Source: Patescibacteria group bacterium
GTDB lineage: Bacteria; Patescibacteriota; Microgenomatia; UBA1406
DNA length: 64,000 nt
Direction: 5' to 3'
Assembly: GCA_041665145.1 (NCBI GenBank)
Contig: JBAYJK010000001.1
Coordinates: 165,629-229,628, forward strand
In this document: in pieces, positions 31,199 to 53,266 of the stretch
Layout of the letters: every line of letters begins with the position of its first letter
Numbering within the stretch: position 1 is the first letter of the stretch
The notes under the pieces: model-generated
Databases searched by the model: none
What the model was told of the DNA's origin: nothing
Seen by the model: only the letters and a program-made list of their open reading frames with translations
Made by a program: the position numbers and the translations under genes

Positions 31199-31220
31199 CC
31201 CCGCCAATGGCGGGGTTTTT
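31199..31220 (+). terminator. Leader terminator/attenuator hairpin CCCCGCC-aat-GGCGGGG + T5
   Basis: A 7-bp GC stem is followed by TTTTT, 36 nt upstream of ATG 31257. An alternative pairing of CGGGG (31159-31163) with CCCCG (31199-31203) is possible. Confidence 0.6.
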
Positions 31221-31256
31221 AGTGGGTTAAAACATTAATAATTAAAACAAAAAAAC

Positions 31257-32840
31257 ATGAAACCAGAAATACCAAAGTACATATTGACTGATGATAGCCG
31301 GGCACTTTTCTCTAAGTTAAACGGAGGAGAAGACATTATTGAAGATAGAGTATTTAACCAGGCTGCATCAAAATATTTTGCGATCATTAATCAGCAAATC
31401 GAGCAGGCATTTGATGGGCCACTGAAGATAGTTGGGGAAACGGAAAGAAGAATTGAAAGCCGACTGCAAAGCAGGGTTCGCTCCATTCTGAAATCGGATC
31501 AGAATGTAGTCTGTATTTGTCTGGACCGGTTTCTCTTCGCTGATTTTGATAAAGACCAGACCTTTGCTGACAGGTTTTTTAGATTTAGTACGTGTCGGAC
31601 TATTGACGGACGAAAAGAACCTCGACAAGGAAATCCTTCGTTTGCAGACCAAATTCAGAACTTGCTGAGAAGCATTCCCGATATTAGAAATAGGAAGGTG
31701 GTTGTCGTCGATGACGGTCTGTTTTCTGGCGGTACTATTAATGATTTCCTGATGTTACTCAAAAGTAACGGGATTGAAATAAATCTGGAAAAAATAATCG
31801 GATACATGGGTCCCCGATCGGTCATGAAAGCTTCAGACAGAAAAACTGAAATCCTGCAGCCCATAGACAATTTATTTGAATGGGTGGATGTGCGTGATTT
31901 TAGCCCGCTTGGAGGTAAAAAACTAAATGCCAGTGCCAATAATATGGTAACCACATCAATCCCATATTTATACCCATGGAGTGAGGGAAGTGCGGCAACA
32001 CTCGATATGTCTCCCGCATTTTTTGATACCAGTATCGCGATTATGAAAGGATTCAGACAATTAGTAGTAACGTACGAACTTTTGCGAAATACCAAATTAA
32101 GGTTCAGAGATTTGATTAAGGCCGGTTACCCTTTACCAACCGATAAAGAAAAGACTGTTCCCATCTCAATTAATGACACTGTTACCGATTATTTGGATCG
32201 TTGTATTGGTTTGGTGGAACAAGAGAAAAATAGAAAAGTGGTTATTTGCGACATGGATGGAACGTTTTACCAGCTTGATGGTAAAGGAGGTGGTTATCAA
32301 AATTCTAAGCTAGAGTTAGCAGTACAAACCAATGCCTTATTATTTATACAACGTAGAGAGAAATGCACACCCGATCAAGCACAGTTAATATTTTCTAGAG
32401 CCCAACAAGATCCAGTGGGGGCAAGTTTGTTCTTAGCGGAGAAATATGGAATTTCCCGTACAGATTATTTTAATGAAGTCTGGAATATCGATCCTGCTGG
32501 AATAGTTGTTAATTACGAAGTTGCAACTGGGTCGTTGTGCCAGTTTAAAGGAAAGTACCCGGGGGTGAAACTAGTTTTATTAACGTCAGCTCCCAGAGTT
32601 TGGGCTGAAAAAGTTTTAAAATTCTTGGGTATCAGGGAGCAATTTGAGCTTATATATACCGGAGAACAATTTGGGTCAAAAACAGAAGTTTTTGCACTGC
32701 TAGCTGGTCGTTATAAACCGGAAAACATGCTGTCTATTGGTGATCAGCAGGCAACTGATATTGAACCAGCTCAACAATTGGGAATGAGCACTCTCGTAAT
32801 TAATAGCCCCGACGAAGTTAGTAGAATATTACAATTATGA
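31257..32840 (+). CDS. Fusion protein: type I phosphoribosyltransferase-like N-domain + HAD-superfamily hydrolase C-domain
   Basis: Has the PRPP-binding motif KVVVVDDGLFSGGTI. HAD motif I is VVICDMDGTF, motif II is LLTSAP and motif III/IV is SIGDQQATD. Confidence 0.7.
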   Translation: MKPEIPKYILTDDSRALFSKLNGGEDIIEDRVFNQAASKYFAIINQQIEQAFDGPLKIVGETERRIESRLQSRVRSILKSDQNVVCICLDRFLFADFDKDQTFADRFFRFSTCRTIDGRKEPRQGNPSFADQIQNLLRSIPDIRNRKVVVVDDGLFSGGTINDFLMLLKSNGIEINLEKIIGYMGPRSVMKASDRKTEILQPIDNLFEWVDVRDFSPLGGKKLNASANNMVTTSIPYLYPWSEGSAATLDMSPAFFDTSIAIMKGFRQLVVTYELLRNTKLRFRDLIKAGYPLPTDKEKTVPISINDTVTDYLDRCIGLVEQEKNRKVVICDMDGTFYQLDGKGGGYQNSKLELAVQTNALLFIQRREKCTPDQAQLIFSRAQQDPVGASLFLAEKYGISRTDYFNEVWNIDPAGIVVNYEVATGSLCQFKGKYPGVKLVLLTSAPRVWAEKVLKFLGIREQFELIYTGEQFGSKTEVFALLAGRYKPENMLSIGDQQATDIEPAQQLGMSTLVINSPDEVSRILQL

Positions 32841-33745
32841 ATCAAATAATCATTGATACAGATCCGGGAGTTGACGATGCCTTAGCGATCGCCCTAGCTT
32901 GTCTTTCAAAACTGAATGTGGTCGCTCTGACAACGGTTTATGGTAATGTCAATATTGCCGATTCAACTCGCAATGCACTGACGATATTGTCAGTCATTAA
33001 TAAAAAAGTTTCCGTATACCAAGGGGCGAGTAAACCTTTGATAAATAATGCGATCAAGGCGCAATCTCACGGAGAAAAAGGATTGGGTGGATTCGCAACC
33101 AAACTTAATTGGCAAAAAAGCCGGCGTAGTGCACGAAAATACTTGGAAGATACCTTTGGCTCAGCAGCGGATACGTCTATTACGCTTGTATGTATTGGTC
33201 CTGCAACTAACATTGCCAAATTATTTATTGCCAATCCTCAATCTGTAACAAAAATAAAAGACCTCGTGATTTTAGGTGGGGTATTTAACGAAAAAGGGAA
33301 TATGTCTCAATATTCCGAGTTTAATGCTATCAATGACCCTGAAGCATTAAAAATAGTTTTAAATGCCAATTGCAATAAGGTGCTGATACCTATAAACATT
33401 TGCAGGAAGGTTGTCTTTAAAAAAAGTGATTTTAATAAACTAATAAATAAGAAATTACAGCGATCTTTTGGCGCTATTGCCGATGCTTATATCAACTATT
33501 ATACCTCTGGAAGTAAATATGGTCAGTTTACCGGTGGAGTAATGTACGATTTGCTCACTGTTGTCTATCTTCTAGAGCCGAAGTTATTTAAAACTATAGA
33601 TGCAAATGTAAATGTCATCACAAGATTGGGCCCAATGTACGGTAGGACCATAATAAAGAAAATAGGAAAAGTGAATTGCCGCGTCGTCAGCGAAATTAAG
33701 CCAAGAAAAGTAAAGCAAGTATTTTTTAACGTTTTAAATAAATAA
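32837..33745 (+). CDS. Inosine-uridine-preferring nucleoside hydrolase family (IUNH), copy 2
   Basis: Has IIIDTDPGVDDALAI. Its start overlaps the stop of the upstream gene (ATGA). Confidence 0.85.
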   Translation: MNQIIIDTDPGVDDALAIALACLSKLNVVALTTVYGNVNIADSTRNALTILSVINKKVSVYQGASKPLINNAIKAQSHGEKGLGGFATKLNWQKSRRSARKYLEDTFGSAADTSITLVCIGPATNIAKLFIANPQSVTKIKDLVILGGVFNEKGNMSQYSEFNAINDPEALKIVLNANCNKVLIPINICRKVVFKKSDFNKLINKKLQRSFGAIADAYINYYTSGSKYGQFTGGVMYDLLTVVYLLEPKLFKTIDANVNVITRLGPMYGRTIIKKIGKVNCRVVSEIKPRKVKQVFFNVLNK

Positions 33746-33747
33746 AA

Positions 33748-34839
33748 ATGGAACTAACAAAAATTCTTTCTAAGCTAATCACAATTCCTTCTTTTGTCGA
33801 TGAGAAAAACAACGAGCAAAAACTTGCCGTTTTTATCGAAAGTTATTTGAAGGTTAATGCTCCTTGGCTTAACTTGTCGCGCCAGTATGTGGCTGAGGAC
33901 CGATGGAATATTATCGCCGGTGAAGCTAAAAACCCGGAACTGGTTTTTGTCTGTCACATGGATACGGTGCAACCTACAGGTGATACGCAAAAAATGCTCT
34001 CTCCGTCAGAAAAAGACGGGTATATCTATGGGCTTGGAGCAGCCGACATGAAAGGCGGAACTGCAGCATTGCTTGCGGCGATAAAAGCTGTTGGTCCGAC
34101 AAAAAATGTCGCATATGTGTTTGACTGCGACGAAGAATATTACTTCAAGGGAGCCAAACAGTTATTGAAAAAATGTAAGTGGAATCCCCAACTGGTTATT
34201 TGTCCCGAACCGACGGATATGGAAATCGTAAACGGTTGTCGTGGAATTATTGAGATAAAATTAGACGTAATCGGAAAAAGTGCGCATGCCGGACGGCCTG
34301 ATTTTGGAATCAATGCAATCGAAAAAGCTGTTGCTGTTATCTCGGAACTTAAGAGTAAGATAGGCGAGTTTGATGAGAAGAAACTCGGTAGAACAACAGT
34401 GAACTTAAGTAGATTGGATGGGGGGAAATTACAGAATGGACAGATAATTACCCAAGGGAATGCAGTCCCCGATGTTGCGCGCGTACTCTTGGACATACGA
34501 CCGGCAAGCAATAAATTGAATGGCGATAGAATAATAAGGATGCTTATGACTATTGCGAAAAGGAATAATGTGACGTTGTCAGGTCCGACTGTTACGATTG
34601 ATTATCCGGCATATTATTCAATTCCGAACGAATGTATTAATAGGCCATATCGAGCCAATTTAGGAAAAGGTGGTTTTTACGAAGCGGCTTTATTTTCCCG
34701 AGCCTGGCAATGTACGGCATTTACATTCGGTCCGGGTGACGCAAGTACTTCGCACAGCCCTGATGAGCGGGTAAAACTAGCTGACTTGACGAGTGTAAAG
34801 AAGGTATTCGAAAAGCTTCTATTGACATATCGTGTATAA
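33748..34839 (+). CDS. M20-family amidohydrolase (ArgE/DapE-like), copy 2
   Basis: Has CHMDTV, GAADMKGG, DCDEEY and SAHAGRP motifs. Confidence 0.8.
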   Translation: MELTKILSKLITIPSFVDEKNNEQKLAVFIESYLKVNAPWLNLSRQYVAEDRWNIIAGEAKNPELVFVCHMDTVQPTGDTQKMLSPSEKDGYIYGLGAADMKGGTAALLAAIKAVGPTKNVAYVFDCDEEYYFKGAKQLLKKCKWNPQLVICPEPTDMEIVNGCRGIIEIKLDVIGKSAHAGRPDFGINAIEKAVAVISELKSKIGEFDEKKLGRTTVNLSRLDGGKLQNGQIITQGNAVPDVARVLLDIRPASNKLNGDRIIRMLMTIAKRNNVTLSGPTVTIDYPAYYSIPNECINRPYRANLGKGGFYEAALFSRAWQCTAFTFGPGDASTSHSPDERVKLADLTSVKKVFEKLLLTYRV

Positions 34840-34853
34840 TTATCATAGTTAAA

Positions 34854-35142
34854 AGCTTTGATAGAGACCGAGTAGCCCCGACGAGTCGTGGGTGAATTAC
34901 ACTCTAGAGCTGTAAGCTGAAAAGCAAGTAAGCCGAGCCGGGTGCGCCCCGTGATAGCGCAAGAGTATGTCAGCGTAAGCCGGAGTACTCGATAATGAGC
35001 GTTTGTGCTTTTAATCGAGTCCCGCATAATGGCGGGATTTTTTTTAGCATAAACTGGAAGACAAGGTGGTACCGCGAGCATTAAGCCCTCGCCCTTGTTG
35101 TGAGTCATATTTTTATGACTGACAGGGGTGAGGGCTTTTTTT
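34854..35142 (+). promoter_or_regulatory. T-box riboswitch leader (transcriptional), minimal Stem I, probable Tyr (UAC) specifier
   Basis: The T-box sequence is GGUGGUACCGCG (35065-35076). The antiterminator has helix A1 ACAAGG/CCUUGU, a 7-nt bulge UGGUACC and helix A2 GCGAG/CUCGC. It competes with a 15-bp terminator (35084-35098 / 35122-35136) followed by a T-run. The Stem I base is a K-turn: AGC-UUU-GA (34854-34861) opposite GA-GCU (34907-34911). The specifier loop reads ACCGAGUA / GAAUUACA. TATAAT at 34835-34840 is upstream. Confidence 0.75.
35020..35045 (+). promoter_or_regulatory. Stem III-position hairpin TCCCGC-ataatg-GCGGGA followed by T8 (terminator-like)
   Basis: A 6-bp GC stem plus U8 lies inside the T-box leader. 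It belongs to the CCCGC/GCGGG hairpin family seen at 31199, 52233 and 53241. Confidence 0.55.
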
Positions 35143-35259
35143 GTGGAAATGAAACATTTTAAAAACAGATGCACAGGAAGCAGGAATTTTTATTATATTC
35201 AGCCCTTCTATGGAGGGCGATGGTTGTTTGCTTTTATAAATTGGAAATCAAAAATTACT

Positions 35260-36294
35260 ATGAAAAAACAAAAAATGTTATGGTTTCAGGATGATTTAAA
35301 GCTAGGTGCTCGTAAGTCATGTTGGCAGAGAATAGATTCCCTCACAGGAGCTCTTGTACGAGCAGTTGGTCATCCGAATATGGATCATGAAATTGTGGAT
35401 CCAAGACCACATATAAGTGCGCTTGCTGAAAAGCTCCCACGGGACGCAACATGCGTTATTGACTTAACAAATGGCCAACTTATGGGAGTGCTGTCAGGAT
35501 TATTTGAGAGCAGCACTCTTGTTACTGGTTTCCATTTGAGCAGGCTGCGAGTTGTGTCTTCGGCACGGTTGGATGGTTCAGGTTTTATGTTAAATAAGAC
35601 AGTGAGAGAATTCGCTGCCTTACCATCGCTTATTGACACCTTCCGGACAGTGATACTGGATGATGTTGGTTGGTCTGGAAGATCAGCACTTGAGGTGTGC
35701 CGACTCTTTGGTCTTCCAGTAGCACAAACCACCTTTGGGTTTGTTATGGGTAATGCCGGTGAGTTTGGTCCTTCACCGGGAGCTGTAAATTTATTGCAGA
35801 GTCTGGGAGGTCGAGTAGTTACTGGTGGTTTGGTTGCGACACCCCGTGACGACGGATTTCATGTTTCAGATTTCTGTAGCACTAATAACATTTCTCATTC
35901 CGAATTAATAGAAGCTTTGTTGGTAATTCAGAGTTTGCGAGAGCATGCTGCTCAATTTCCTGGAGAGAGCAAAGAAGTAGAAAAAAGAATAATGCAGCTT
36001 TTTAAGGAGGCTCGCGATCTGCTCTTTCCAAACGCTCTTAGTTCGACTATGATAAAAGAATTAATGCGAGAGGGAAAGGTAATTTGTATGAACGGTATAC
36101 CAAAAGATGCACTCTTTCAGACGAATCCATTAAATTGGTTACTTCCTTCTTTTGCTAAGCGTGTTCGAAGTGAAGATTTGCAACAGAATTTGGCAATTGT
36201 CATTGGCTCTTTAGATGAGTTACGGGCGATCAAAGAAGAAGGTAATGTGCAAGGAATAGAAGGTAACTTTCTAAATATGGAGATGAGACTATGA
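35260..36294 (+). CDS. PRT-like protein (degenerate PRPP motif), paralogous in layout to the N-domain of the 31257 protein
   Basis: Has TVILDDVGWSGRSALEV (hydrophobic strand, DD, small residues). The start is moved to ATG 35260 because the track ORF from 35128 runs through the T-box terminator. Confidence 0.5.
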   Translation: MKKQKMLWFQDDLKLGARKSCWQRIDSLTGALVRAVGHPNMDHEIVDPRPHISALAEKLPRDATCVIDLTNGQLMGVLSGLFESSTLVTGFHLSRLRVVSSARLDGSGFMLNKTVREFAALPSLIDTFRTVILDDVGWSGRSALEVCRLFGLPVAQTTFGFVMGNAGEFGPSPGAVNLLQSLGGRVVTGGLVATPRDDGFHVSDFCSTNNISHSELIEALLVIQSLREHAAQFPGESKEVEKRIMQLFKEARDLLFPNALSSTMIKELMREGKVICMNGIPKDALFQTNPLNWLLPSFAKRVRSEDLQQNLAIVIGSLDELRAIKEEGNVQGIEGNFLNMEMRL

Positions 36295-36818
36295 CAAAGA
36301 AAAGAAAGATTCAAATAGCAGTTGTTGGTTCAATGTTCGACTTGCCGCAAAACCGGTCTACTATCGCGCTTGCAAGAGATATTGGAAGAGAATTAGCCAC
36401 TAATAAAGCAGTTTTGTTATATAGCTTCGAAGGGGATAGTCAATCACTTTCTTATATAGCAGCTAGAGAAGCTGAAAAATGTGGTGGAGAAATTATCGCA
36501 TTTCTTTGGGGTAATACGAAAGTGACGGGCTCTGTAGTAGGAAAAGCAGTTCGAACCGGGCAACTCCGAGGAGGAGGCAGAGAATTCCCACTAATTTTAA
36601 GTGCTAACGCTGTTATAAGTATTGGTGGTGGATCAGGGACTCTTATGGAGATAGCTATGTCTTATCAAGCGGGAATTCCTGTCATTGCTCTCGAAAATAC
36701 TGGTGGATGGAGTGAACGCCTGATGAATACGTTTATGGATGAAAGAAAAAGAAATAAAGTGCTTTCAGCAAAAGATGCTCGAAGTGCAGTGCTTCTGGCG
36801 ATAAAGGAAAGTATTTAG
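36291..36818 (+). CDS. TIGR00725 / LOG (SLOG)-family Rossmann protein
   Basis: Has IAVVGS at the N-terminus and the ISIGGGSGTLMEIAMSYQAGIPVIAL motif (GGGxGTxxE). ATGA overlap with the upstream gene. Confidence 0.7.
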   Translation: MTKKRKIQIAVVGSMFDLPQNRSTIALARDIGRELATNKAVLLYSFEGDSQSLSYIAAREAEKCGGEIIAFLWGNTKVTGSVVGKAVRTGQLRGGGREFPLILSANAVISIGGGSGTLMEIAMSYQAGIPVIALENTGGWSERLMNTFMDERKRNKVLSAKDARSAVLLAIKESI

Positions 36819-38632: not shown

Positions 38633-38648
38633 CGGAACCTACATTATA

Positions 38649-39025: not shown

Positions 39026-42000
39026 ATGGGTATGTTTGATTTTTTGGGAAGTAAGAAGAATGACCAGTCAGGAAGCCCCAGCCAAGATGCGCAAGGGACA
39101 ACGACCTCATCAACGGTGACGACGGTAACCACTGATCAATCATCTGTGCAATCAGCGCAGAGTGGCACCATGTATAATGGTGTTGGTTCTGCTCCTGCAG
39201 GTGCGGTAACAACAGATGGAATAACGCCACCTCAAGCCCCAAAAGCAGCACAACCTTCGGGACAAACGCAGACAGCGGGGATTCCCACAGCAGCTGCTAA
39301 CACGCAACAACCTGCTACACCAATGGATAAGAAAACAGGAATGGATATAATGACTCGTCTTACACAACGCTCGAACAGAGTTCTTCTTGTTGCGGCACAA
39401 AAAGCGCAAGCGCTCAACAATCCTCTTGTTGACAGCGAGCATGTTCTATATGGTTTGTTGGCAGACCAGGAAATTTTCAATTTGCTTTCTCAACTCAAAC
39501 TGATTCCACAGGAAGTCGTTAAGCAGTTGGAAGCAACGTTCCATAAAGGAACAACTCCGACAAAACCTCAACTTGCTCCCCGGGTAAAGAAGATTTTGGA
39601 AGACGCACTGATTGTAGCGCGTAAGCTGGGATACGAATTTATCTCCCCGGAACATATTTTGTATGCCCTGTATCATGAGGGCGAAGGAGTCGGTTCGCGC
39701 ATTTTAGTTAAGGTAGGATTAAACAAGGACGAATTGAATATCAAGGTTCTTGGTAAGAAAAAAGGTCTTGAGACACAACAACAGGAAGAAAGAAAACAAA
39801 GCGCATTGGAAAAGTACACAACAGACCTTACGGCAAAAGCTGCTGCAGGGCAGCTTGATCCGGTAGTTGAACGGTCTCAAGTCATCGAGCGCGTAATTCA
39901 CATTCTTTCTCGAAGATCAAAAAATAATCCTGTCTTGACCGGCGAGGCGGGAGTCGGAAAAACGGCAATTGTTGAGGGTCTGGCCGAAAAAATAGTTTCG
40001 AAAGAAGTCCCTGAAACCTTGTTAAATCACCGTGTTTTGCAACTCGACCTTATGGCGATTCTAGCAGGCGCTTCACATAGGGGTGAATTTGAAGAGCGTT
40101 TGAAAGGGGTTATGGACGAATTGAAAGCCATGATGGGCAAAGTTATTCTTTTTATAGATGAGATTCACAACATCGTCGGCGCAGGTGGGGAGGCTGGGTC
40201 AGGAGACGCGGCAAACATTATTAAACCGGCGCTTGCGCGAGGCGAAGTTCAGCTAATCGGTGCAACTACCACCTCAGAATACCGAAAATATATTGAAAAA
40301 GATCCGGCACTTGAACGGCGTTTCCAGCCGATAGAGGTTCCCGAGCCATCGGAAGATGCGGCCATAAAAATGCTTCGAGCCATACGTGATAAATATGAAG
40401 CCTTTCATAAAGTTAAAATTCCTGATGAGGCAATCGAAGCTGCTGTTAAGCTCTCTAAACGGTACGTCGGCGGACGATTTCTTCCTGATAAGGCAATCGA
40501 TCTTATAGATGAAACAGCCTCAGCTGTGCGTCTTCCGATTATCTCTCTACCTGAAGAAATAAAGTCTCAAGAAGAAAAAATAAAAGCGATGCAGCAGGAA
40601 CGAATGGAGGCTCTGAAGATTAATAACAAAGTAAAGGCCAATATCTATGAAAAGAAAATAATCGATGCACAAGACCTCCTCAAGCAGAAGCAGGAGGAAT
40701 ACTTGCAGAAAAAAGCTATGTCTGTCGGTGTTGTTAATCTTCAAATGATTAAGGACGTAATTGCCCGGTGGACGGGAATTCCGGTAAATAAAATTACGGA
40801 GTCGGAAAAGGATAAAATTTCCAACCTCGAAGACATCATGCATAAGCGTCTCATTAATCAGAAAGTGGCAGTTGCCGCGGTAGCTCAGGCGATCAGACGC
40901 GGAAGAGCTGGTCTTAAATCAACGCAGCGACCTATCGGAAGTTTTATCTTTCTCGGTCCCACGGGTGTAGGAAAAACAGAATTGGTGAAAACACTCGCTG
41001 AGGTTTTGTTCGGAACCGAAGATTCCATGGTGCGATTCGACATGACGGAGTACATGGAAAAACACGAAGTCGCAAAATTGTTAGGCGCTCCTCCAGGATA
41101 TGTTGGATACGAAGAAGGAGGAAAGCTTACCGAAGCAGTCAAAAGAAAGCCGTATAGCGTTGTGCTGTTTGATGAGGTGGAAAAAGCACATCCTGATATT
41201 TTTAATATTTTGCTTCAGATTCTTGACGATGGGCGATTGACTGACAACAAGGGCCATACTATCTCTTTTAAAAATACGGTGGTTATATGTACTTCAAATA
41301 TCGGTTCACGCACTATTCAACAAGAATTAATGAAGAGTGGCAAGGATCAAATAGAAGAGCCTCTCGCGCTTAATACGTATGTTGTTTCGCCGCGGGGACG
41401 TGCTATTGTAACTGTCGGTAACACGGTGTTTTTGAAAGAGGCAGAAACAAATACCTGGGCGGAATCGATATTGCGCGATTATTTTGCAGGGCAAAAAATT
41501 TTAACAATAGACGAGAATGGTAAAGACAAGGAAGTTGATTTTTCTTTGTTCAAAATTCAGACGCATGCAATATCACCACAAGGGTCAGAATACATAACCG
41601 CAGAGGAGAATTTGTATGTGAGAACAGCCACAACGGCGAAAGAGTGGCGCCTGATGAAGTTGCTTGATTACGCAAAAGACGCTGTGGTAGTAAATGGATT
41701 ACCTGATACTCCCGAGGAGCAATTACCGACCATCAAGTTCCACACGCACGCCTTCACTTCGCAAGAAGAAGAGATTGTGACGTACAAAAATAGAATGTGG
41801 AAAAGAAAAACGGGAACGAACGACTGGCAAACCCAAACTCTTTCGGAATATTTGAATGGAGCAAAAACCTCGGATAATAAACCGTTGCCGGTTGCATATT
41901 GGAATATTCATCTATTCAATTCTAAGGGTGAGGAATTGATTGTGGTTGGAGAAATGGTGTATCACAGATCAGGTACGGTATGGGAAGCAAAGCCGGTGGT

Positions 42001-42745
42001 TGAATTCTTCGGAGAAGGGTTCCCATTGCAAGCCGAAATAAAACGGATGCAGGAAGTTCAGGAAGAAGTTGATAAACAAAAATTTGGCAAAATCAAAGAC
42101 AGAGTCATGGATGAACTGATGAAGTTTATGCGTCCTGAACTGGTTAACCGGTTTGACGAGGTGGTGGTTTTCGAACCGCTCCGATATGAGCACATGTTGC
42201 TGATCGTGAAACTACAAATAAAAGGATTGCGCACGTTGCTTGAAGAGCAAAGTTTCGGACTTGAAGTTACGGAGGCCGCTCAAAAAGAAATCGTCAGGGT
42301 GGGGTTTGACCCGGTATTTGGTGCACGACCCCTGAGACGCGCATTACAGAAGCTAGTTGAAAATCCGATTTCTGAGCTGATAATTGCCCAGAAAGTTAAG
42401 GAGGGTGAAGCAATATTAGTAGATTATGACGGTGAGAACTTTACGTTTACCATGGCACAGGCCGAGCTTAATCCTCAACAGGAGGAGAAGAAAGAGTCAT
42501 TCACCTGCCAATACTGTCAGTATAAATTTGAAACGATCGTCCGGAAAGGAAAAAGCACCGTAGTTTGTTCGAAGTGTGGGAAAGGGCAAAAGGAAAAGAA
42601 AGACGATAACAAACAGCAGGCTTCGGATAAAAAAGAAGATGAGAAGAAAACCGAGCCGGCAATATCAATGACATTGCCTCCAACAGCAGATATTAACGGG
42701 AAGGCTGCTCAGAATAATTTTCAACCGCAACTCGCCACGTTGTAA
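39026..42745 (+). CDS. clpC: ClpC/ClpB-type AAA+ chaperone-unfoldase with N-terminal low-complexity extension, about 220-aa repeat insertion in AAA2 and C-terminal zinc ribbon
   Basis: Has Clp_N repeats, Walker A1 [15 protein letters not shown], a short M-domain, Walker A2 [15 protein letters not shown] and sensor-2 GARPLRR. The insertion lies between TSNIGS and [10 protein letters not shown]. The C-terminal CxxC...CxxC is FTCQYCQ...VVCSKCG. Confidence 0.85.
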
Positions 42746-42785: not shown

Positions 42786-42869
42786 CAGCTGAAAAAGTTT
42801 TCAAACACATAGGCGTTTGAAATTTGAGTCTTGGAAATTGATTGAAAACTGCAAACTAAAAACTGAAAA
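42786..42869. terminator. Cluster of palindromic hairpins between convergent clpC and yidD (bidirectional terminator region)
   Basis: TTTTCAGCTGAAAA is a perfect 14-bp palindrome. TTTCAAAC/GTTTGAAA is an 8-bp inverted repeat. GTTTTCAG also pairs with a distal CTGAAAAC. Confidence 0.5.
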
Positions 42870-46338: not shown

Positions 46339-47053
46339 GCTCCAAAATATTACCGTATCGTTCCAAGAAAAGGTTATTGTTCATAATGTCAGTCTGGAAT
46401 TGCAACGGGAAACCATTACCGTACTCATGGGACCGAACGGGTCGGGTAAATCAACCTTAGCCAGTGCACTCATGGGACATCCGTTTTATCGTATGGATGC
46501 CACATCACATATTGAACTTGACGGCGAAGATATCGTGAATCTACCGCCGAATGAACGAGCTCAGAAAGGTCTGTTTATGGGTTTTCAGAATCCGGTAGCT
46601 GTGGCGGGCGTTAGTCTGACTAAACTGCTGAGAGAGACGAGCGACCCGAAAACGATGGACACGAAGCATTTTATGCAGGATCTTCGCTATCTTGCCAAGG
46701 GTCTTCAGTTTTCTGAAGGACTACTCATTCGCGGATTAAATGACGGATTCTCTGGTGGGGAAAAGAAAAAAATTGAGATGGTACAGGCGCGGTACTTGGC
46801 AAGGAAGTATGCTTTGTTTGATGAAGTAGATACGGGACTCGATGTGGATGCATTGAAAAAAGTTGCCGTTATGATGAACGAATTGAAAAGAAAAACCGTT
46901 GGGTGTCTGATCATTACCCATCACCCACGATTAATAGAGTATCTTGATGTCGATCGGATTATCGTCATGTCAAAAGGGGTTATTGTTGATGAGGGAGGCA
47001 GGGAACTCGTTAAAAAAATAGAACACGCCGGGTATGCAGGATACACACACTAG
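46331..47053 (+). CDS. sufC: Fe-S cluster assembly ATPase SufC
   Basis: Has Walker [10 protein letters not shown], the signature FSGGEKKK and Walker [11 protein letters not shown]. Confidence 0.9.
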
Positions 47054-48419
47054 TCAATGGGATTTTAAGGACAATACAAAGTATTCGTTCGTTGCCAAAA
47101 AAGGACTGACCGAAACACTGGTCCGACAAATCTCAAAAAAAAAGAATGAGCCGGAATGGATGCTCGACTTTCGATTGGCGGCATTGAAAATATACTACGG
47201 AAAAAAAATGCCGTTATGGGGTGGCGACCTTTCGGGCATAGATTTCGAGAATATTCATTATTATTTGCGTTCACAAGAAAAGCAGGCAAAAAGTTGGGAG
47301 GAGCTACCGTCAGATATCAAAAAAACCTATGATTATCTCGGTATTCCGGAAGCTGAAAAAAAGTTCCTTGCCGGAGTATCCGCACAATACGAATCGGAAG
47401 TCCTCTATAAATCCATTCAAAAAGAACTTACTAAAAAAGGAGTCGTGTTTTTGGATACCGATTCCGGGTTGCGGGAGTATCCCGAAATTTTCAAGAAATA
47501 TTTCGGTAAGTTGATTCCTCCGGGTGATAACAAATTTTCAGCACTTAACTCTGCCACGTGGTCCGGTGGAAGTTTTGTCTATATTCCGAAGAATGTAAAA
47601 GTGACAATGCCTTTGCAGGCATATTTCAGAATTAACGCTCAGAACGTCGGTCAGTTTGAACGAACACTCATTGTTGCAGAAGAAGGCAGCTCTGTACATT
47701 ATATAGAAGGGTGCAGTGCACCAGTTTACTCGACCTCCTCACTTCATGCTGCAGTTGTCGAGATTTTTGTTCATGAGAACGCACATGTCCGATACACGAC
47801 AGTTCAGAATTGGAGTCCGAATATCTATAATCTTGTCACTAAACGGTCGCGGGTAGAGAAAAATGGTGTAATGCAGTGGATAGACGGCAACCTTGGTTCC
47901 CGGCTTACCATGAAATATCCCAGTTGTTATCTGGTTGGTGAAGGTGCCAAGGGAGAAGTATTGTCCATAGCTTATGCAGGACGTGGGCAGCATCAGGATG
48001 CCGGGGCAAAGATGATACATCTTGCACCGCACACAACGTCCCGTATTGTTTCGAAATCAATATCCAAAGATGGAGGGCGCACGTCGTACCGGGGGTTAGT
48101 GCATGTTCGCAAAGGAGCACATCATGTTATGTCGAAAGTTGTCTGCGATGCACTTATATTAGATGAACATTCCAGATCAGACACATACCCCACCATGAGT
48201 ATCGACGAACAAAAAGTGAAAATAGAACACGAAGCAACAGTATCTAAAATAGGCGAAGAGCAGTTGTTTTATCTGCAGTCCAGGGGAATTAAGAAAGAGC
48301 GAGCCGAAGCGCTTATCGTAAATGGTTTTTTGGAATCTGTTGTTAAGGAATTGCCACTTGAGTATGCTGTTGAATTAAACCGTTTGATGATCATGGAAAT
48401 GGAAGGAAGCGTAGGGTAA
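47034..48419 (+). CDS. sufB: Fe-S cluster assembly protein SufB
   Basis: Has the typical SufB beta-helix core and the C-terminal [12 protein letters not shown]...A..L.V.GF motif. Confidence 0.9.
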
Positions 48420-48434
48420 AAATTCAAAATTCAA

Positions 48435-49067
48435 ATGACAAATCCACAAATCAAACTCAAAATTCGAAAGAATCCCAAACAAGTGAAAGTGGCGACTACT
48501 AAAGGGGAGAAGAAAATAGTTGTTGTTGTTTTTAACTATCGGGATACCGTCGCAACGGTGCCGGTTACTTTATCAATTGCCGAGAATAGTCAGGTATTTT
48601 GTGTTATTTGTTGCAATTTACTGGGAAACAGCAATGTGTCGTTAGTGACGAATCAGGACCACAATAATATGGGAGGAGTGTCCCACCTCTTGTGTAAAAC
48701 CGTTTCACACGACGGGTCGAAATTTTCTTTTTCCGGTACAATCACTATTTCCAAAAAAGGCCAAAAAAGTCATGCGTATCAGCGAAATGAAAACTTACTG
48801 TTGGGGACTGAAGGAGCGGTTACGTCTGAACCGAAACTACAGATACTGGCAAATGATGTTTTTTGTACTCATGGTTCGACAACAGGATATCTTGATGAAG
48901 AACAAGTGTTTTATCTTCAGTCACGCGGTTTGTCAAAAGAAAAAATAAAAGCGCTTTTATCAAAAGGATTTTTACTTTCGGGAGTCGACATGTTGGTGAA
49001 TGCCGGTCTGCCGCTGCCGGTTATTCAGGATCTCTCCGACGAGGTTGAAAAGGCCTTATTGGTATAA
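48435..49067 (+). CDS. sufD: SufD-like Fe-S assembly protein (short, 210 aa)
   Basis: Has the SufB/D C-terminal motif EEQVFYLQSRGLSKEKIKALLSKGFL. Its position after sufB supports the call. Confidence 0.7.
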   Translation: MTNPQIKLKIRKNPKQVKVATTKGEKKIVVVVFNYRDTVATVPVTLSIAENSQVFCVICCNLLGNSNVSLVTNQDHNNMGGVSHLLCKTVSHDGSKFSFSGTITISKKGQKSHAYQRNENLLLGTEGAVTSEPKLQILANDVFCTHGSTTGYLDEEQVFYLQSRGLSKEKIKALLSKGFLLSGVDMLVNAGLPLPVIQDLSDEVEKALLV

Positions 49068-49075
49068 TACAAAGC

Positions 49076-49438
49076 ATGCACGACGATCTATACCGTGAAG
49101 AAATTCTTGATCATTATCATCATCCGCGAAATGCGGGGAAACTCGATCACTGTTCGCATCACGCGTTGAAAGATAATCCGTTATGTGGCGATAAAATCGA
49201 GATTTTTTTGCAGGTTGAGGTTGGAACGATCAGAAAAATTAATTTTGTTGCCACCGGATGTGCGATTTCTGTTGCATCGGCAAGTATGCTCAGCGAAATG
49301 GTTACAAACTGGAAGATCGAAAGAACCAAAAAATTAGCAGCAAAGGATATTCTGGAAATGCTTAAAATTGAGTTAACCCCGACACGGCTTAAATGCGCAC
49401 TGCTTTCACTGGAGACTCTTCAAAGAGCATTACCGTAA
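49076..49438 (+). CDS. sufU: SufU/IscU-type Fe-S scaffold protein
   Basis: Has the NPLCGD, GCAIS and RLKCALL cysteine motifs. Confidence 0.8.
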   Translation: MHDDLYREEILDHYHHPRNAGKLDHCSHHALKDNPLCGDKIEIFLQVEVGTIRKINFVATGCAISVASASMLSEMVTNWKIERTKKLAAKDILEMLKIELTPTRLKCALLSLETLQRALP

Positions 49439-49473
49439 TGCTGTTAGCGGTCCCGGCCACTTATATTTCCGTT

Positions 49474-49501
49474 TTGCATTTAGCAGTTTTTCGTGTATAA
49501 T
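49474..49501 (+). promoter_or_regulatory. Promoter TTGCAT-16-TATAAT for leaderless rpsO
   Basis: TTGCAT at 49474-49479 and TATAAT at 49496-49501. ATG 49509 is 7 nt downstream. Confidence 0.6.
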
Positions 49502-49508
49502 CCATCCC

Positions 49509-49949
49509 ATGGTTAAAGAAACAAAAAAAGAAAAAACAGTCAAGAAGGCTGTCAAAACCCCTGAAAAAACAGTTAAAGAAGTGAAGACCAAGAAGGTTGT
49601 CGCTCCCAAAAAAGAAGAGAAGGTTGAGGTAAAACCAGTGAAGGTTCCCGTAGTAAAGCCGGTTACCACAGCCAAAAGTGAAGAAGACGAGAAACAAGAT
49701 GTTATTAAAGAATTTGCCACGCAGGCAAATGATACAGGATCTCCCGAGGTTCAGGTAGCCATACTTACTTGGAAGATTGTTCGCCTCCAGAAACATTTGG
49801 CCGAAAATCCAAAAGACAATCATTCTCGACGCGGACTTCTTAAAATCATTTCAAAGCGCCGCCGTATCATGAACTATCTGAAGAAAAAAGACGAAAAACG
49901 ATACACGGTACTTGAAGCAAAAATCCAGGACTATCAGAAGCGGGGGTAA
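49509..49949 (+). CDS. rpsO: 30S ribosomal protein S15 with an N-terminal Lys/Val/Glu-rich extension of about 60 aa
   Basis: The C-terminal 85 aa carry the S15 signature (GSPEVQVAILT..I..L..HL..N.KD.HSRRGLL..I.KRR....YL). The N-terminus is KKEKTVKKAVKTPEKTVKEVKTKK... Confidence 0.85.
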   Translation: MVKETKKEKTVKKAVKTPEKTVKEVKTKKVVAPKKEEKVEVKPVKVPVVKPVTTAKSEEDEKQDVIKEFATQANDTGSPEVQVAILTWKIVRLQKHLAENPKDNHSRRGLLKIISKRRRIMNYLKKKDEKRYTVLEAKIQDYQKRG

Positions 49950-49959
49950 TTAGGGTTGT

Positions 49960-52041
49960 ATGAAACAAATTAATAAATCAATCGAACTGGCAGGACGAAA
50001 GCTGGTCTTTCGTATTGGCGAGGTTGCCGAACAAGCAACTGCCGCTGTTATAACTCAATACGGTGAAACAACAATTCTCACCACTGTTGTCGTCGGAAAA
50101 GAAAATCCTGACCTCGACTATTTTCCTCTTGGCGTAGAGTACGCTGAAAAACTGTATGCTGGTGGACGAATTAAAGGTTCTCGTTGGGTAAAGCGTGAAG
50201 GACGCCCGAATGACAGCGCCATACTTGCTGCACGACTAATTGATCGATCAGTTCGTCCGTTATTTGACGATTCATTCCGCAGAGACGTACAGGTCATTAA
50301 TACTGTTTTGTCGATCGACGGAGTTAATTCCCCTGAAATTGTTGCTGCTCTTGGTTCCTGTTGCGCATTATCATTATGTTCAATTCCCTGGAATGGTCCA
50401 GTGGCGACGCTTGAAATCGGATTGGTAAACGGTGAAAAAGGCGGAAAAGGACAATACATCGTTAATCCAACTTCACAGGAAGATAAATTATCAAGAATGA
50501 GCCTCATAGTTTCTGCTACGAATAAAAAGGTCGTCATGATCGAAACGAAGGCTGAGGAAGTTTCGAACGAGGAAGTTTCGGAAGGTATTAAACTTGCCAA
50601 AAAAGAAATGCTTCCCCTTATTGCTTTGTTTTCAGAACTTCGTAAGGAGGCAGGCGTAAAAGATTATGTTGCAAAAGCTACGGAAGAGAAAAAAGATGTT
50701 GTAACGTTAATCTCCAAAAAATACCATGAAGAACTTATAAAACGTCTTCAAGATATGGCTGATAAGGAAAATGTCGATGCATCAGGAGATGAACTGGTTA
50801 CAAAGATTGCGGAAGAGTTCCAACTCGAAGAAAAAGAAGCGCCAAAAGTTTTGAAGAAAATATATAAGAAACTGATGAAAGAGCTTGTTCTGAAAATGGG
50901 CAAGCGAGCTGACGGACGTAAAATGGATCAAGTCCGACCATTGTCCGCACAAGTAGGTGTCATTCCCCGAATTCATGGTTCAGCGATATTTAAGCGCGGA
51001 GCTACGCAAGTATTATCGATTGCTACCCTCGGCCCGCTTTCATTACAGCAATGGATTGAAAACCCGGAAGGCGAATTCATGAAACGTTATATTCATCATT
51101 ACTTTATGCCTCCGTACTCTGTCGGAGAAACGGGACGCGTCGGTACACCAAATAGGCGTGAAATCGGACATGGTGCATTGGCAGAAAAAGCCATTGAACC
51201 AATGTTGCCTGAGGAAATAAAATTCCCCTACACTGTCAGAATTGTTTCGGAAGTTTTGTCTTCGAACGGATCAACCTCAATGGCGTCCACGTGCGGATCA
51301 AGCTTGGCTCTTATGGACGCGGGAGTTCCTATCAAAGAGCAAGTCGCTGGTATTGCCATGGGACTTGTTCGCGAAGACGACACGAAGTATCAAATACTTA
51401 CCGACATTATTGGGATTGAAGACTTTTTCGGCGAGATGGATTTTAAAGTAGCCGGAACAAAAAACGGGATTACTGCTATTCAACTTGATGTCAAAAACGA
51501 CGGTATTAACGATGCAATGATTGATACCGCCTTATCAGGCGCTCAAGTAGCGCGAATGACCATTCTTGATGTCATGAATAAGGCGATCGACAAGCCACGT
51601 AAAGAGCTGTCGAAGTACGCACCTCGTGTTGTTATGCTTACACCTCCGGCTGACAAGATCGGCGAGATCATCGGACCGGGAGGAAAAAATATTAAAAAGC
51701 TCATCGCAGATACCGGTTGTGAAATCGATATCGACGACGACGGTAAAGTGTCAATCTCAGGCGTGAACGCCGAAGGGGTTGAACGGGCTGTCAGAGCAAT
51801 CGAGGCAATGTCCAAAGAATACAAACTTGGAGAAGTATACGAAGGAACAGTCATTAAAATACTTCCGTTCGGAGCAATCGTCGAGATTGGTCCAGGAAAA
51901 GAAGGCCTTTTACATGTCTCTCAAATGGGTATGGGATTTGTGAAAGATGCCAATGAAGTGTTCAAAGAGGGTCAATCAGCCAAGGTTGAAGTAGCTGAGT
52001 TAGATGATAGGGGCCGTATGAAATTCAAATTGGTGAAATAA
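49960..52041 (+). CDS. pnp: Polyribonucleotide nucleotidyltransferase (PNPase)
   Basis: Has two RNase PH domains, a KH domain (GPGGKNIKKL) and a C-terminal S1 domain (GTVIKILPFGAIVEI). Confidence 0.95.
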   Translation: MKQINKSIELAGRKLVFRIGEVAEQATAAVITQYGETTILTTVVVGKENPDLDYFPLGVEYAEKLYAGGRIKGSRWVKREGRPNDSAILAARLIDRSVRPLFDDSFRRDVQVINTVLSIDGVNSPEIVAALGSCCALSLCSIPWNGPVATLEIGLVNGEKGGKGQYIVNPTSQEDKLSRMSLIVSATNKKVVMIETKAEEVSNEEVSEGIKLAKKEMLPLIALFSELRKEAGVKDYVAKATEEKKDVVTLISKKYHEELIKRLQDMADKENVDASGDELVTKIAEEFQLEEKEAPKVLKKIYKKLMKELVLKMGKRADGRKMDQVRPLSAQVGVIPRIHGSAIFKRGATQVLSIATLGPLSLQQWIENPEGEFMKRYIHHYFMPPYSVGETGRVGTPNRREIGHGALAEKAIEPMLPEEIKFPYTVRIVSEVLSSNGSTSMASTCGSSLALMDAGVPIKEQVAGIAMGLVREDDTKYQILTDIIGIEDFFGEMDFKVAGTKNGITAIQLDVKNDGINDAMIDTALSGAQVARMTILDVMNKAIDKPRKELSKYAPRVVMLTPPADKIGEIIGPGGKNIKKLIADTGCEIDIDDDGKVSISGVNAEGVERAVRAIEAMSKEYKLGEVYEGTVIKILPFGAIVEIGPGKEGLLHVSQMGMGFVKDANEVFKEGQSAKVEVAELDDRGRMKFKLVK

Positions 52042-52064
52042 TATTTGAAACGTACGATTTGCGC

Positions 52065-52094
52065 TTGACTATTTTTTTATTCGTAGTCTAAAAT
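52065..52094 (+). promoter_or_regulatory. Candidate promoter TTGACT-18-TAAAAT downstream of pnp
   Basis: TTGACT at 52065-52070 and TAAAAT at 52089-52094. Confidence 0.4.
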
Positions 52095-52120
52095 ACTACC
52101 GTTACATATCTGATGTATAA

Positions 52121-52144
52121 AACTCCACGTGTTGGAGTTTTTTT
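52121..52144 (+). terminator. Intrinsic terminator AACTCCA-cgtgt-TGGAGTT + T-run (pnp terminator and/or leader attenuator)
   Basis: A 5-7 bp stem is followed by T7. An 11-codon ORF (52113-52148, MYKTPRVGVFL) reads through it. Confidence 0.6.
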
Positions 52145-52232
52145 GTGAAATAAATTGATTTATTAGCTGATGATTACGCACAAAATTGTTCTTTGCATTA
52201 CAAATAAAGAGCTTTGGCTCTTGAAATTTTAA

Positions 52233-52257
52233 CCCCGCTTAAAGCGGGATTTTTTTT
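52233..52257 (+). promoter_or_regulatory. Terminator-like hairpin CCCGC-ttaaa-GCGGG + T8, ending 4 nt before ATG 52262
   Basis: A GC stem plus U8 sits immediately upstream of the start codon, with no SD sequence between them. Confidence 0.5.
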
Positions 52258-52261
52258 GACT

Positions 52262-53161
52262 ATGACAGATAGATTACGTAGCGGTTCAATAACAGAAGAG
52301 CACGTTCGAAGAATCACCGAGTACCATGGTCGACGGTTAGTTATCATAACGGGCAGTCTGCCCTCCACACAAGAAATTTACGCCCAAGGAGGAATCCAAC
52401 TGAGTGGAGATCCTGCTTTGCGTTTATTTTCAGGCAGGGGGGAAGATTATTACGGAAAAACAAGTGGTGTCGGGCCGATTGTCAATTCACACAGAGCGCA
52501 TTCTCATACGGTCGAAGCGGCTGGAGCTAAAACTATCGGCGTGATGGTTGGAGTTCAAACACACCCTGAGCTTTTGCAGACTGATATTACTGATCTGGCG
52601 CTGGGTACTCGTGATACCGCACATTCATTCGTGAGTCCGGATGGCACCGTTCAGACGGTGCTCAATAAGGCTGATAAAGGTGACTCTACACAAATTGACG
52701 CTTTGGCTCGGCAGTTTTTTATTATGGCAGAGCGGGGAGATCGGGCTAGCATTGCAACGTCGATGGCGCAATTAAGTCCCGATCATAATTCAATTCGACT
52801 CCTTTTAACTCGACTGCACTATGGAGTCGTCGCTCCTGAAATTTCTGAGGAGGAGCTGAAGGAATATATGCTTGCGCATGGTGCAGGAATTGCCGGAAGC
52901 ATCGACTGGTTAGTTGCGGTAAAAATGGGTGTTATCCAGCCGTTCAATAGAGCCACGTTCGTTCATCAACAACTTACTATCGGAGCAGATTCTCCGGAAG
53001 TTGCACCACAGGATTTATGGAGATGGATGCGAACGTCTCCTCAGGAAAGGGAACCGCTTCAGGTTGTTGACGAAGTACGCGGTGAACTTCCGTTTTGCCC
53101 TGGAGATCCTGCAAACCGGCAGCAGCTTCTTTTGCTCAGTCGAGGTATTTTAACCCAATAA
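52262..53161 (+). CDS. Hypothetical protein (300 aa); possible Rossmann/SLOG-like N-half (very tentative)
   Basis: The ORF starts at ATG 52262; the track's TTG at 52214 would read through the hairpin. The segment RLVIITGS...AAGAKTIGVMVGV weakly recalls TIGR00725-type proteins. Confidence 0.45.
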   Translation: MTDRLRSGSITEEHVRRITEYHGRRLVIITGSLPSTQEIYAQGGIQLSGDPALRLFSGRGEDYYGKTSGVGPIVNSHRAHSHTVEAAGAKTIGVMVGVQTHPELLQTDITDLALGTRDTAHSFVSPDGTVQTVLNKADKGDSTQIDALARQFFIMAERGDRASIATSMAQLSPDHNSIRLLLTRLHYGVVAPEISEEELKEYMLAHGAGIAGSIDWLVAVKMGVIQPFNRATFVHQQLTIGADSPEVAPQDLWRWMRTSPQEREPLQVVDEVRGELPFCPGDPANRQQLLLLSRGILTQ

Positions 53162-53163
53162 AC

Positions 53164-53192
53164 TTGCAATCCGTCTATTCGCTCGGTATAAT
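53164..53192 (+). promoter_or_regulatory. Promoter TTGCAA-17-TATAAT
   Basis: TTGCAA at 53164-53169, a 17-nt spacer and TATAAT at 53187-53192. Confidence 0.7.
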
Positions 53193-53197
53193 TAAAC

Positions 53198-53266
53198 ATG
53201 GATAGGTTGGAATCCGACAGTAGGAAACTGTTTTTATTAGCCCCGCATTTTTGCGGGGTTTTTTAG
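53198..53266 (+). CDS. Candidate leaderless 22-codon upstream ORF MDRLESDSRKLFLLAPHFCGVF that reads through a terminator hairpin
   Basis: The ATG is 5 nt after the -10 box. The ORF covers the hairpin at 53241-53264. Its stop (TAG, 53264-53266) is followed by GGGGGA (an SD-like sequence) and ATG 53279. Confidence 0.35.
   Translation: MDRLESDSRKLFLLAPHFCGVF
53241..53264 (+). terminator. Leader terminator-like hairpin CCCCGC-attttt-GCGGGG + T6
   Basis: A 6-bp GC stem and U-run sit between the promoter and the HD-gene start. Confidence 0.55.

Follow-up and report, generated by a model that had tools for sequence, protein, structure and literature searches.

Ribosome-mediated leader-peptide attenuators of the his/trp type and T-boxes are the described systems closest to the locus presented here, and both are sensors of tRNA charging. 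For the glyQS T-box, a transcriptional pause within the Stem III loop has been proposed to buy time for tRNA binding (PMC5570125, PMC13001445), while in Deinococcus deserti leaderless leader peptides have been predicted upstream of aminoacyl-tRNA synthetase genes (PMC4007540). In Patescibacteria (candidate phyla radiation, CPR), regulatory RNA is almost unexplored, and our literature search turned up no publication describing T-boxes or attenuation by leader peptides in the CPR. Here we analyze a 64,000-nucleotide stretch (the window, whose positions are used throughout) of contig JBAYJK010000001.1 from an uncultivated, Microgenomates-like member of this group with a small genome, and more precisely four look-alike hairpins with a CCCGC/GCGGG core, designated sites 1 to 4. 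These hairpins probably represent intrinsic-terminator modules in four independent 5'-leader regulatory units. Two of these units, a predicted His leader-peptide attenuator (site 1) and a predicted Tyr T-box (site 2), are known attenuator classes, here in Patescibacteria.

The pattern CCCGC-N3-7-GCGGG has four matches in the window (31200-31214, 35021-35036, 52234-52248 and 53242-53257), whereas 100 dinucleotide shuffles gave 0.10 matches on average and in no case as many as four. All four hairpins are on the forward strand, carry a run of five to eight T on their 3' side and qualify as intrinsic terminators (a GC-rich stem with 5 bp or more, a 3-8 nt loop and an adjoining U-tract), with a single A between stem and T8 at site 3. 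Each is preceded by a promoter-like element (listed below with its site) and followed at 5-214 nt by a start codon. The original prediction was thus borne out regarding the presence of the hairpins and their location between a promoter-like element and a gene start. The start codons themselves are backed by orthologous loci (31257), by the N-termini of homologues (35260), by the homologue P0087 (52262; 62% identical, the alignment beginning at query residue 17) and by the related locus L016 (53279); two gene callers had taken the leader into the coding regions, giving a 381-aa call at 35149 and a 315-aa call at 52214. From T-run to start codon there are only 36 nt at site 1, 5 nt at site 3 and 13 nt at site 4, which leaves no space for a separate promoter, so that the three downstream genes are expected to be transcribed by read-through only.

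A custom scan of the window for stable hairpins followed by T5 or more returned few strong candidates. The strongest on the forward strand lie at 28977 (-27 kcal/mol), 31198 (-15.3 kcal/mol), 35017 (-13.6 kcal/mol), 35091 (-21.3 kcal/mol) and 53240 (-15.4 kcal/mol); a weaker one is at 52120 (-7.9 kcal/mol), and site 3 (52234) was missed because one A parts its stem from the T-run. Altogether, the hairpins are supported as leader (premature) terminators rather than gene-end terminators. The stronger claim that none of them sits at a gene end held for their position in leaders but not in full, since site 3 is located 192 nt after pnp and site 4 78 nt after the stop codon of a 299-aa gene, and both could also end those transcripts. 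Similarly, of the three terminators with unrelated stems that had been assigned to housekeeping genes, the one at 28977 does follow a gene, an 87-aa TrpR-like gene that falls under the cut-off of the list of open reading frames (ORFs); the one at 52121, earlier taken for the pnp terminator, is part of the site 3 leader, since the conserved promoter at 52065 precedes it, and the one at 42786 is unconvincing as a terminator.

Site 1 comprises the following elements, from promoter to terminator:

31063-31091, forward strand: promoter-like element, TTGACA, 17 nt, TAATAT, TG-extended; equivalents in L010, L011, L013 and L014
31101-31169, forward strand: leader ORF MNILRKNIVSQEMHHSPTHSGQ, ended by a stop codon; near-leaderless, with its start about 10 nt past the -10; orthologous HH/HxH ORFs in L010-L014
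31147-31164, forward strand: hairpin 1:2, GCCCC-N8-GGGGC (31147-31151 with 31160-31164); minimum free energy (MFE) and centroid folds
31159-31203, forward strand: antiterminator 2:3 (31159-31173 with 31189-31203); MFE fold when the terminator's 3' arm is left out
31198-31221, forward strand: hairpin 1, terminator 3:4, ACCCCGCC-aat-GGCGGGGT with T5, then AGTGG, -15.3 kcal/mol; fold and pattern scan

The leader ORF has 22 codons, with CAT CAT at 31140-31145, directly 5' of region 1, and a third His codon at 31155-31157. The full leader folds into hairpin 1:2 plus the terminator; the antiterminator, built from region 2 and the 5' arm of the terminator, excludes both. A ribosome stalled at the CAT codons for want of His-tRNA would mask region 1, leaving region 2 to pair with region 3, and the polymerase would then read into the operon; with no stall, hairpins 1:2 and 3:4 would form and transcription would stop at 31216-31221. 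On this model, site 1 is predicted to be a classical ribosome-mediated His leader-peptide attenuator of the his/trp type. The operon concerned encodes PRT-HAD (a phosphoribosyltransferase-phosphatase fusion whose gene starts at 31257), an inosine-uridine-type nucleoside hydrolase and an M20 hydrolase, to which relatives add SLOG and PfkB proteins.

An alignment-based scan of species-representative genomes for PRT-HAD orthologues led to six loci in other Patescibacteria genomes, the relatives of the protein being found in Roizman-, Woese- and Beckwithbacteria; a scan of genome contigs with the single PRT-HAD protein as query gave no match. Five of the six loci have a promoter and, behind it, a short ORF that contains His codons:

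L010: MKSLTLQTSKIVHHNLAPAG, then stop
L011: MIIKLLSSLHHTHAHAG, then stop
L012: ends in SLHHTLN, then stop
L013: MTLKNIRQAHYHANL, then stop
L014: MNTFVSNLVHHTNRV, then stop

These ORFs contain the motifs HH, HHTHAH or HYH and are followed by a hairpin and a terminator in L010, L011, L013 and L014, L012 having no clean terminator. His represents 15 of 122 leader residues versus 2.2% in the proteins of the window, the peptides being related and hence not independent samples. Mutually exclusive 1:2, 2:3 and 3:4 helices are also found in L010, L013 and in the Tyr leaders of L003, L006 and L012, and regions 2/3/4 co-vary, reading GGGGC/CCCC/GGCGGGG in the window, GGUUGGUGG/CCCACCAAACC/GGUGGG in L014 and GGCGG/CCGCC/GGCGG in L006. 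In L013 and L014, a tRNA-His gene lies between the attenuator and PRT-HAD, and in L012 hisS is found further downstream in the gene string, behind a separate YYY leader:

L013, 2810-2884 and 3773-3847: tRNA-His (GTG) genes
L014, 3776-3847: tRNA-His (GTG) gene

A second CCCCGC hairpin accompanies the tRNA-His gene, upstream of it in L014 and downstream, just before PRT-HAD, in L013. No Rfam family gave a significant match to this attenuator: Trp_leader reached 19-22 bits for a threshold of 41 (E 2.4) and covered the terminator only, and His_leader was not among the families reported. Two small TrpR/YerC-like regulator genes are also present nearby, at 28676-28975 and 30676-31014 (reverse strand). 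The latter is divergent from the His-attenuated operon, a palindrome (AGTACGTACTAGTATACTAGTAC) overlaps the near-consensus promoter of the former, the 87-aa TrpR-like gene, and in L010 and L012 the promoters orthologous to that of the His-attenuated operon also have palindromes across them, for instance TTAACACGTTAA.

Regarding site 2, the hairpin is part of a much longer structured leader:

34822-34849, forward strand: promoter-like element, TTGACA, 16 nt, CATAGT; promoter scan
34849-35142, forward strand: Tyr T-box leader with short Stem I, Stem II, IIA/B, composite Stem III, antiterminator and terminator; Rfam RF00230
35001-35054, forward strand: composite Stem III, whose outer helix (35001-35009 with 35046-35054) encloses hairpin 2; fold, same layout in L003 and L007
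35017-35045, forward strand: hairpin 2, GAGTCCCGC-ataatg-GCGGGATTT with T8, apical part of Stem III and not the T-box terminator; Rfam alignment and fold

In a permissive search, RF00230 matches 34849-35099 over its full length (model positions 1-219) with 62.6 bits and E 2.3e-12. This is under the gathering score of 93, and the scan of the window at gathering threshold reported one tRNA only and missed the T-box, as standard pipelines would. The low score is explained by a truncated Stem I and by the long insertion borne by Stem III: the distal platform of Stem I (AG bulge and distal loop) is absent, with 11 nt versus 53 in the model (in L003, 32 nt versus 84). The leader has a fold z-score of -5.5. 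Its specifier region GAAUUACAC aligns to the model and presents UAC at 34898-34900 followed by A (34901), while the T-box hallmark AAGGUGGUACCGCGAG is found at 35063-35078, in an antiterminator (35062-35097, bulge UGGUACC) competing with a terminator (35085-35135) that is followed by T7. Judged by these elements, the site 2 leader is a predicted Tyr (UAC)-specific T-box, with a predicted response to the tRNA. Orthologous T-boxes are present in L003 (Rfam E 1.6e-4), L002 and L007, the last two being 5'-truncated, unscored by Rfam and recognized by eye from AAGGTGGTACCG and the terminator.

In L002, L004 and L007, the last gene of the operon, behind a SLOG gene, is tyrS, in agreement with the Tyr specifier. 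In the window, it consists of a 344-aa PRT-like protein (35260-36294) and a SLOG protein, contains no tyrS and ends at 36818, facing a convergent ftsH. The 344-aa protein has only eight homologues and no Pfam, NCBIfam or PDB match; its family shows a weak PRT-like core match to the N-domain of PRT-HAD (window 31257-32840; hhalign probability 30%, E 6e-4). It also contains a PRPP-loop-like motif, ILDDVGWSGR. Proteins of unknown family in L011 and L014 were considered as further homologues and rejected.

Within this leader, hairpin 2 reads as RNA GAGUCCCGC-AUAAUG-GCGGGAUUU with U8 and forms an insertion in the Stem III of the model. In L003, CCCGC-ACACAA-GCGGG with U8 lies within a different outer helix, and in L007 the same architecture has an inner stem CACCUG/CAGGUG with U7. 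A hairpin with U7-8 in three orthologous leaders whose stems differ argues for a conserved arrangement, and we consider the Stem III hairpin and its U-tract a predicted conserved feature with stem variation rather than an accident of this genome. The decision of the T-box would be made at the downstream antiterminator and terminator (35062-35142) and not at hairpin 2, which, together with its U8, may constitute a programmed pause or a partial early-termination checkpoint. A pause in Stem III, possibly an amplified form of the one known from glyQS, would let tRNA-Tyr dock before the terminator is made. Another explanation, possible though in our view doubtful, is that the hairpin and its U8 are a functionless structural extension ignored by the polymerase, the likeness to a terminator being incidental. 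The length and the sequence of Stem III are known to be variable (PMC5570125), the Stem III of L002 carries no U-run, and the (A)GTGG sequence that follows 12 other terminator hairpins follows none of the three Stem III U-tracts (window, L003 and L007). The recurrence of hairpin and U7-8 with differing stems nonetheless points to selection on the arrangement.

The same operon family would have a second way of reading Tyr-tRNA, since Tyr leader peptides (YYY or YYYY) take the place of the T-box or are found beside it in L004, L006 and L003. L006 has no T-box; a near-leaderless ORF, MKIRITTSSYYYTPGLGGVIFSG, closed by a stop codon, precedes a hairpin and the terminator CCGCC-GAAAG-GGCGG with U6, and a 2:3 alternative exists. 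The same leader-peptide logic is found in L004 with MIASNRPQTTSAYYYTPASGRMVACRMG, also closed by a stop codon. L003 has both sensors, the peptide MCKKNLIKQFTYYYYQLLYRRAIF and its stop codon being located between the T-box terminator and CCCGCC-GGACA-GGCGGG with U6:

L003, 4618-5032: tandem leader, Tyr T-box then Tyr leader-peptide attenuator

L003 is thus predicted to place two different sensors of the same tRNA in tandem. In the window, positions 35149-35259 read NFYYIQPFYGGRW (MKHFKNRCTGSRNFYYIQPFYGGRWLFAF) within a longer frame shared with the 344-aa gene, with a hairpin at 35202-35218. Although akin to the Tyr leader peptide of L003, this segment has no stop codon and no terminator and looks like the remnant of such a peptide. 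From these comparisons, operons of this one family appear to exchange T-box and leader peptide for one another or to combine them. L012 (6497-6627) also has a YYY leader peptide, MKTQRTQSHWYYYSIRTVGRVFVA with its stop codon, which is followed by a terminator and a radical-SAM/SPASM-like gene, then hisS; a Tyr-codon leader before a radical-SAM enzyme is unusual. In L006 (about 2950-2960), an in-frame TGA occupies the position of a conserved Trp of the 344-aa family (IF-stop-FQDG versus LWFQDD) and the gene call begins after it, which suggests that the L006 lineage reads TGA as a sense codon.

Sites 3 and 4 follow each other behind pnp:

52065-52094, forward strand: promoter-like element 3' of pnp, TTGACT, 18 nt, TAAAAT; TTGACT and the following GTTACATATC kept in L016
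52120-52146, forward strand: first leader hairpin, AAACTCCA-cgtgt-TGGAGTTT with a T-run; kept in L016 as ACTCCA-tggaag-TGGAGT with T6
52233-52257, forward strand: hairpin 3, CCCCGC-ttaaa-GCGGG, A, T8, ending 5 nt before ATG 52262; pattern scan, absent from L016
53164-53192, forward strand: site 4 promoter-like element, TTGCAA, 17 nt, TATAAT, then 5 nt and ATGGAT at 53198; hexamers, spacing and ATGGAT kept in L016
53239-53266, forward strand: hairpin 4, AGCCCCGC-attttt-GCGGGGTT with a T-run, -15.4 kcal/mol, then AGTTGGGGGAAACT and ATG 53279; identical to L016 at 41 of 43 positions

The gene order pnp, 299-aa gene, next gene is the same in L016 and on the P0087 contig, the latter having the same spacing as the window (pnp, 220 nt, gene, 129 nt, next gene). 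The L016 homologues of the 299-aa and 473-aa proteins are 30% and 41% identical, respectively; a word-based search had given no homologue of the 473-aa protein, and two scans of metagenome contigs for the 299-aa family gave no match. At site 4, L016 reads TTGCAA, 17 nt, TATAAT, 5 nt, ATGGAT, about 35 variable nucleotides and then CCCCGCAYTTTTGCGGGGTTTTTTAGTTGGGGRAAACTATG, the 41 identities being counted from the 5' arm to the ATG, loop included. The second hairpin of this leader, site 3, would be lineage-specific, the promoter and the first hairpin ahead of it being conserved.

Since the start codons lie 5 and 13 nt past the T-runs and expression needs read-through, the hairpins of sites 3 and 4 are predicted to act as attenuators, either conditional or constitutive. 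As for the mechanism, our best guess is that ribosomes on short leaderless ORFs, by reaching or crossing the hairpins, may hinder their formation. Leu-codon and UTP-sensing readings of both sites were considered and rejected, the short ORFs not being conserved.

Two alternatives have to be weighed for these sites. The first, which we regard as unlikely, is that both hairpins (together with 52121) are ordinary Rho-independent terminators of pnp and of the 299-aa gene, with fortuitous hexamers and a leaky, unregulated read-through. Both sites are indeed 3' of genes of the same strand, no antiterminator has been found for them, the short ORFs vary and promoter-like matches are only slightly commoner than in shuffles. 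Against it, hexamers, spacing and ATGGAT are kept in L016 despite proteins that are only 30-41% identical, the near-identity of site 4 extends over the loop and the 3' flank up to the ATG, beyond what a generic terminator needs, and the downstream genes depend on read-through. The second, less probable still, is that site 4 (possibly 52101-52146 too) is not a cis-acting leader but a small-RNA gene made of a promoter, about 65 nt and a terminator. The conserved promoter and terminator form a compact unit, which, together with a fold z-score of -3.4, would fit this idea. However, the 41-43 nt body between start and hairpin is poorly conserved while the region from hairpin to ATG is conserved, the downstream gene would be left with no promoter of its own, and no Rfam family reaches significance.

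Considering the four sites together, several observations weigh against intrinsic-terminator modules in independent leaders. Promoters, transcription starts and terminations are all predictions. At site 2, a hairpin with U8 inside a T-box should terminate transcription before the sensor is complete, and the Stem III of L002 is a plain CCCGCC...GGCGGG with no U-run. The short ORF of site 4 is not conserved: in the window MDRLESDSRKLFLLAPHFCGVF (22 aa, then stop) runs through the hairpin, while in L016 MDGIKTIFDL stops 11 nt before it. Folding was used to look for an antiterminator at site 4 and found none, and at site 3, absent from L016, an alternative pairing was sought with the same outcome. 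Finally, the His-regulated operon encodes nucleoside-salvage-type enzymes and not His biosynthesis. Despite these points, we still favor the interpretation of four independent leader units built around intrinsic terminators. The suggestion of a shared attenuation mechanism stood as far as attenuation as a category is concerned, but not as a single mechanism, as at least two are involved and hairpin 2 is not the terminator of its own riboswitch.

The content of these operons led us to consider another possibility. Queuosine is present at position 34 in the tRNAs for only four amino acids, and His and Tyr are among these. Downstream of the leaders with His codons, with Tyr codons or with the Tyr T-box, the genes encode nucleoside hydrolases, PRT-like proteins, a LOG/SLOG-type protein, a PfkB kinase and a radical-SAM enzyme (L012). 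It is conceivable, but very improbable, that the leaders sense how competent NAY-decoding tRNAs are in decoding, through their queuosine status, instead of amino-acid supply and switch on a nucleoside/queuine salvage module. If true, a leader peptide or a T-box would here be sensing a tRNA modification. Homology brought no support for queuosine salvage: the 344-aa protein has no family match, the radical-SAM enzyme of L012 appears SPASM-like and the nucleoside hydrolases appear RihC-like.

Less probable still, and largely refuted, is a version of the common cassette of the original prediction in which a single repeated or mobile element (of REP/MITE type, or a leader that was duplicated) gave all four hairpins and joins two acquired islands: a 5-bp core with a T-run found four times in one orientation for 0.1 expected, and a 26-nt stretch 77% alike between sites 1 and 2, speak for it, but an alignment of the 140-nt flanks of the four sites confines identity to CCCGC...GCGGG(G/A)T5, the loops differ (aat, ataatg, ttaaa and attttt from site 1 to site 4), comparison of the window sequence found no longer direct repeat and no terminal repeats joining the sites, each leader has its own orthologue at the same syntenic position elsewhere and site 2 is embedded in a T-box. 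The two islands fared no better, since GC content is flat (0.37-0.47 across the whole window, with no compositional island) and distant relatives keep the synteny of the gene clusters together with their leaders. PRT-HAD and the nucleoside hydrolase occur together in L011, L012, L013 and L015, and in L014 in another gene order; in L010, SLOG and PfkB genes follow PRT-HAD in place of the nucleoside hydrolase.

The likeness of the CCCGC/GCGGG cores would rather reflect a terminator design typical of the lineage than the common descent of a cassette, the same core being found in leaders of related genomes. In the window and related loci (156 kb), 11 hairpins have this core and 11 of 11 are in leaders, a census biased by the choice of loci for containing these genes. 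In attenuators, regions 2 and 4 are necessarily near-copies, so the G-rich block is doubled. Similar GC-rich terminator stems are weak evidence of common origin. A further shared element extends past the stem: in the window and loci, T5-8 followed by (A)GTGG comes directly after 12 GC-rich terminator hairpins, two of them being the ordinary terminator behind the 87-aa gene (28977) and that of the T-box (35136). Among 1204 T-runs, 16 are followed by (A)GTGG for about 6 predicted by composition, and 12 of these 16 come right after hairpins. In this lineage, the termination signal may extend downstream to include (A)GTGG.

Terminator T-runs followed by (A)GTGG: window 29019, 31216 and 35136; L004 4773; L006 2862 and 2917; L010 3960; L012 6558 and 6611; L014 3691 and 3746

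The organization of the other genes of the window provides a context for these leaders. In many of them, a -10 hexamer resembling TATAAT is found only 5-9 nt before the ATG, and few have a Shine-Dalgarno sequence; judging from these motifs, leaderless mRNAs appear to prevail in this genome. A gene with a promoter, leader and hairpin in front of it is conspicuous against this background.

Leaderless examples, TATAAT-like -10 close to the ATG, forward strand: 8429, 14788, 20325 and 57161
Leaderless examples, TATAAT-like -10 close to the ATG, reverse strand: 38632, 20298, 14652, 12438 and 7711

Just upstream of rpoB (ATG about 60942), a near-consensus promoter (TTGACA, 17 nt, TATACT) is followed after about 20 nt by a hairpin, GAGCGTAC-tcttt-GTACGCTT, with a T-rich run (60841-60915), and this may be another promoter-proximal hairpin. 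At 39026-42745, ClpB reaches 1239 aa, with a long N-terminal extension before Clp_N and about 280 residues between AAA_2 (635-770) and D2-small (1052-1132), possibly an intein or an insertion domain.

These small-genome bacteria appear to use both tRNA-charging sensors, with leader peptides driven from leaderless transcripts. Compared with known systems, site 1 shares with enterobacterial hisL and trpL the clustering of regulatory codons 5' of region 1, the overlapping 1:2/2:3/3:4 helices and a GC-rich 3:4 hairpin with a U-tract, and the stem of the Escherichia coli trp attenuator (GCCCGC/GCGGGC in the Rfam alignment) resembles the CCCGC/GCGGG core. Unlike these, it has a near-leaderless leader ORF with no Shine-Dalgarno sequence; the Patescibacteria leaders have two to four His codons versus seven in hisL, and this type of attenuator would regulate PRT-HAD, nucleoside hydrolase and M20 genes (with tRNA-His in relatives), not his biosynthesis. 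The E. coli pyrBI attenuator is UTP-sensing. Site 4 resembles it by a leader ORF running through the terminator hairpin, by U-rich stretches before the hairpin and by a nucleotide-related operon (dNK), but its ORF is not conserved in L016 and nothing points to UTP sensing. The leader peptides predicted in D. deserti are alike in having the start codon at the transcription start, an enrichment in cognate residues, aminoacyl-tRNA synthetase or amino-acid genes downstream and a leaderless-rich genome; they belong to another phylum, and it is the Patescibacteria operon family that switches between leader peptide and T-box or has both in tandem, as in L003.

Regarding T-boxes, the site 2 leader has in common with that of Bacillus subtilis tyrS (RF00230) a UAC specifier with a purine after it, a T-box sequence that forms the UGGN bulge and a terminator in competition with it, as well as tyrS in the operons of its relatives. 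It differs by a Stem I with no distal platform, a Stem III with a terminator-like apical hairpin and U8, and an operon devoid of tyrS. The actinobacterial ileS T-boxes described by Sherwood et al. in 2015 reportedly have an ultrashort Stem I and regulate translation by Shine-Dalgarno sequestration; they are similar in their truncated Stem I with Stem II and IIA/B kept, while the T-box of the window has a canonical transcription terminator. Two variant features deserve attention, namely the apparent exchange or combination of T-box and leader peptide on one operon family and the terminator-like apical hairpin on Stem III, which offers a concrete case for the role of Stem III and its pause in T-box kinetics. 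The pause of glyQS (position 138, Stem III loop) is likewise a hold point before the antiterminator is made; unlike site 2, however, the Stem III of glyQS has no GC hairpin with U8 resembling a full intrinsic terminator.

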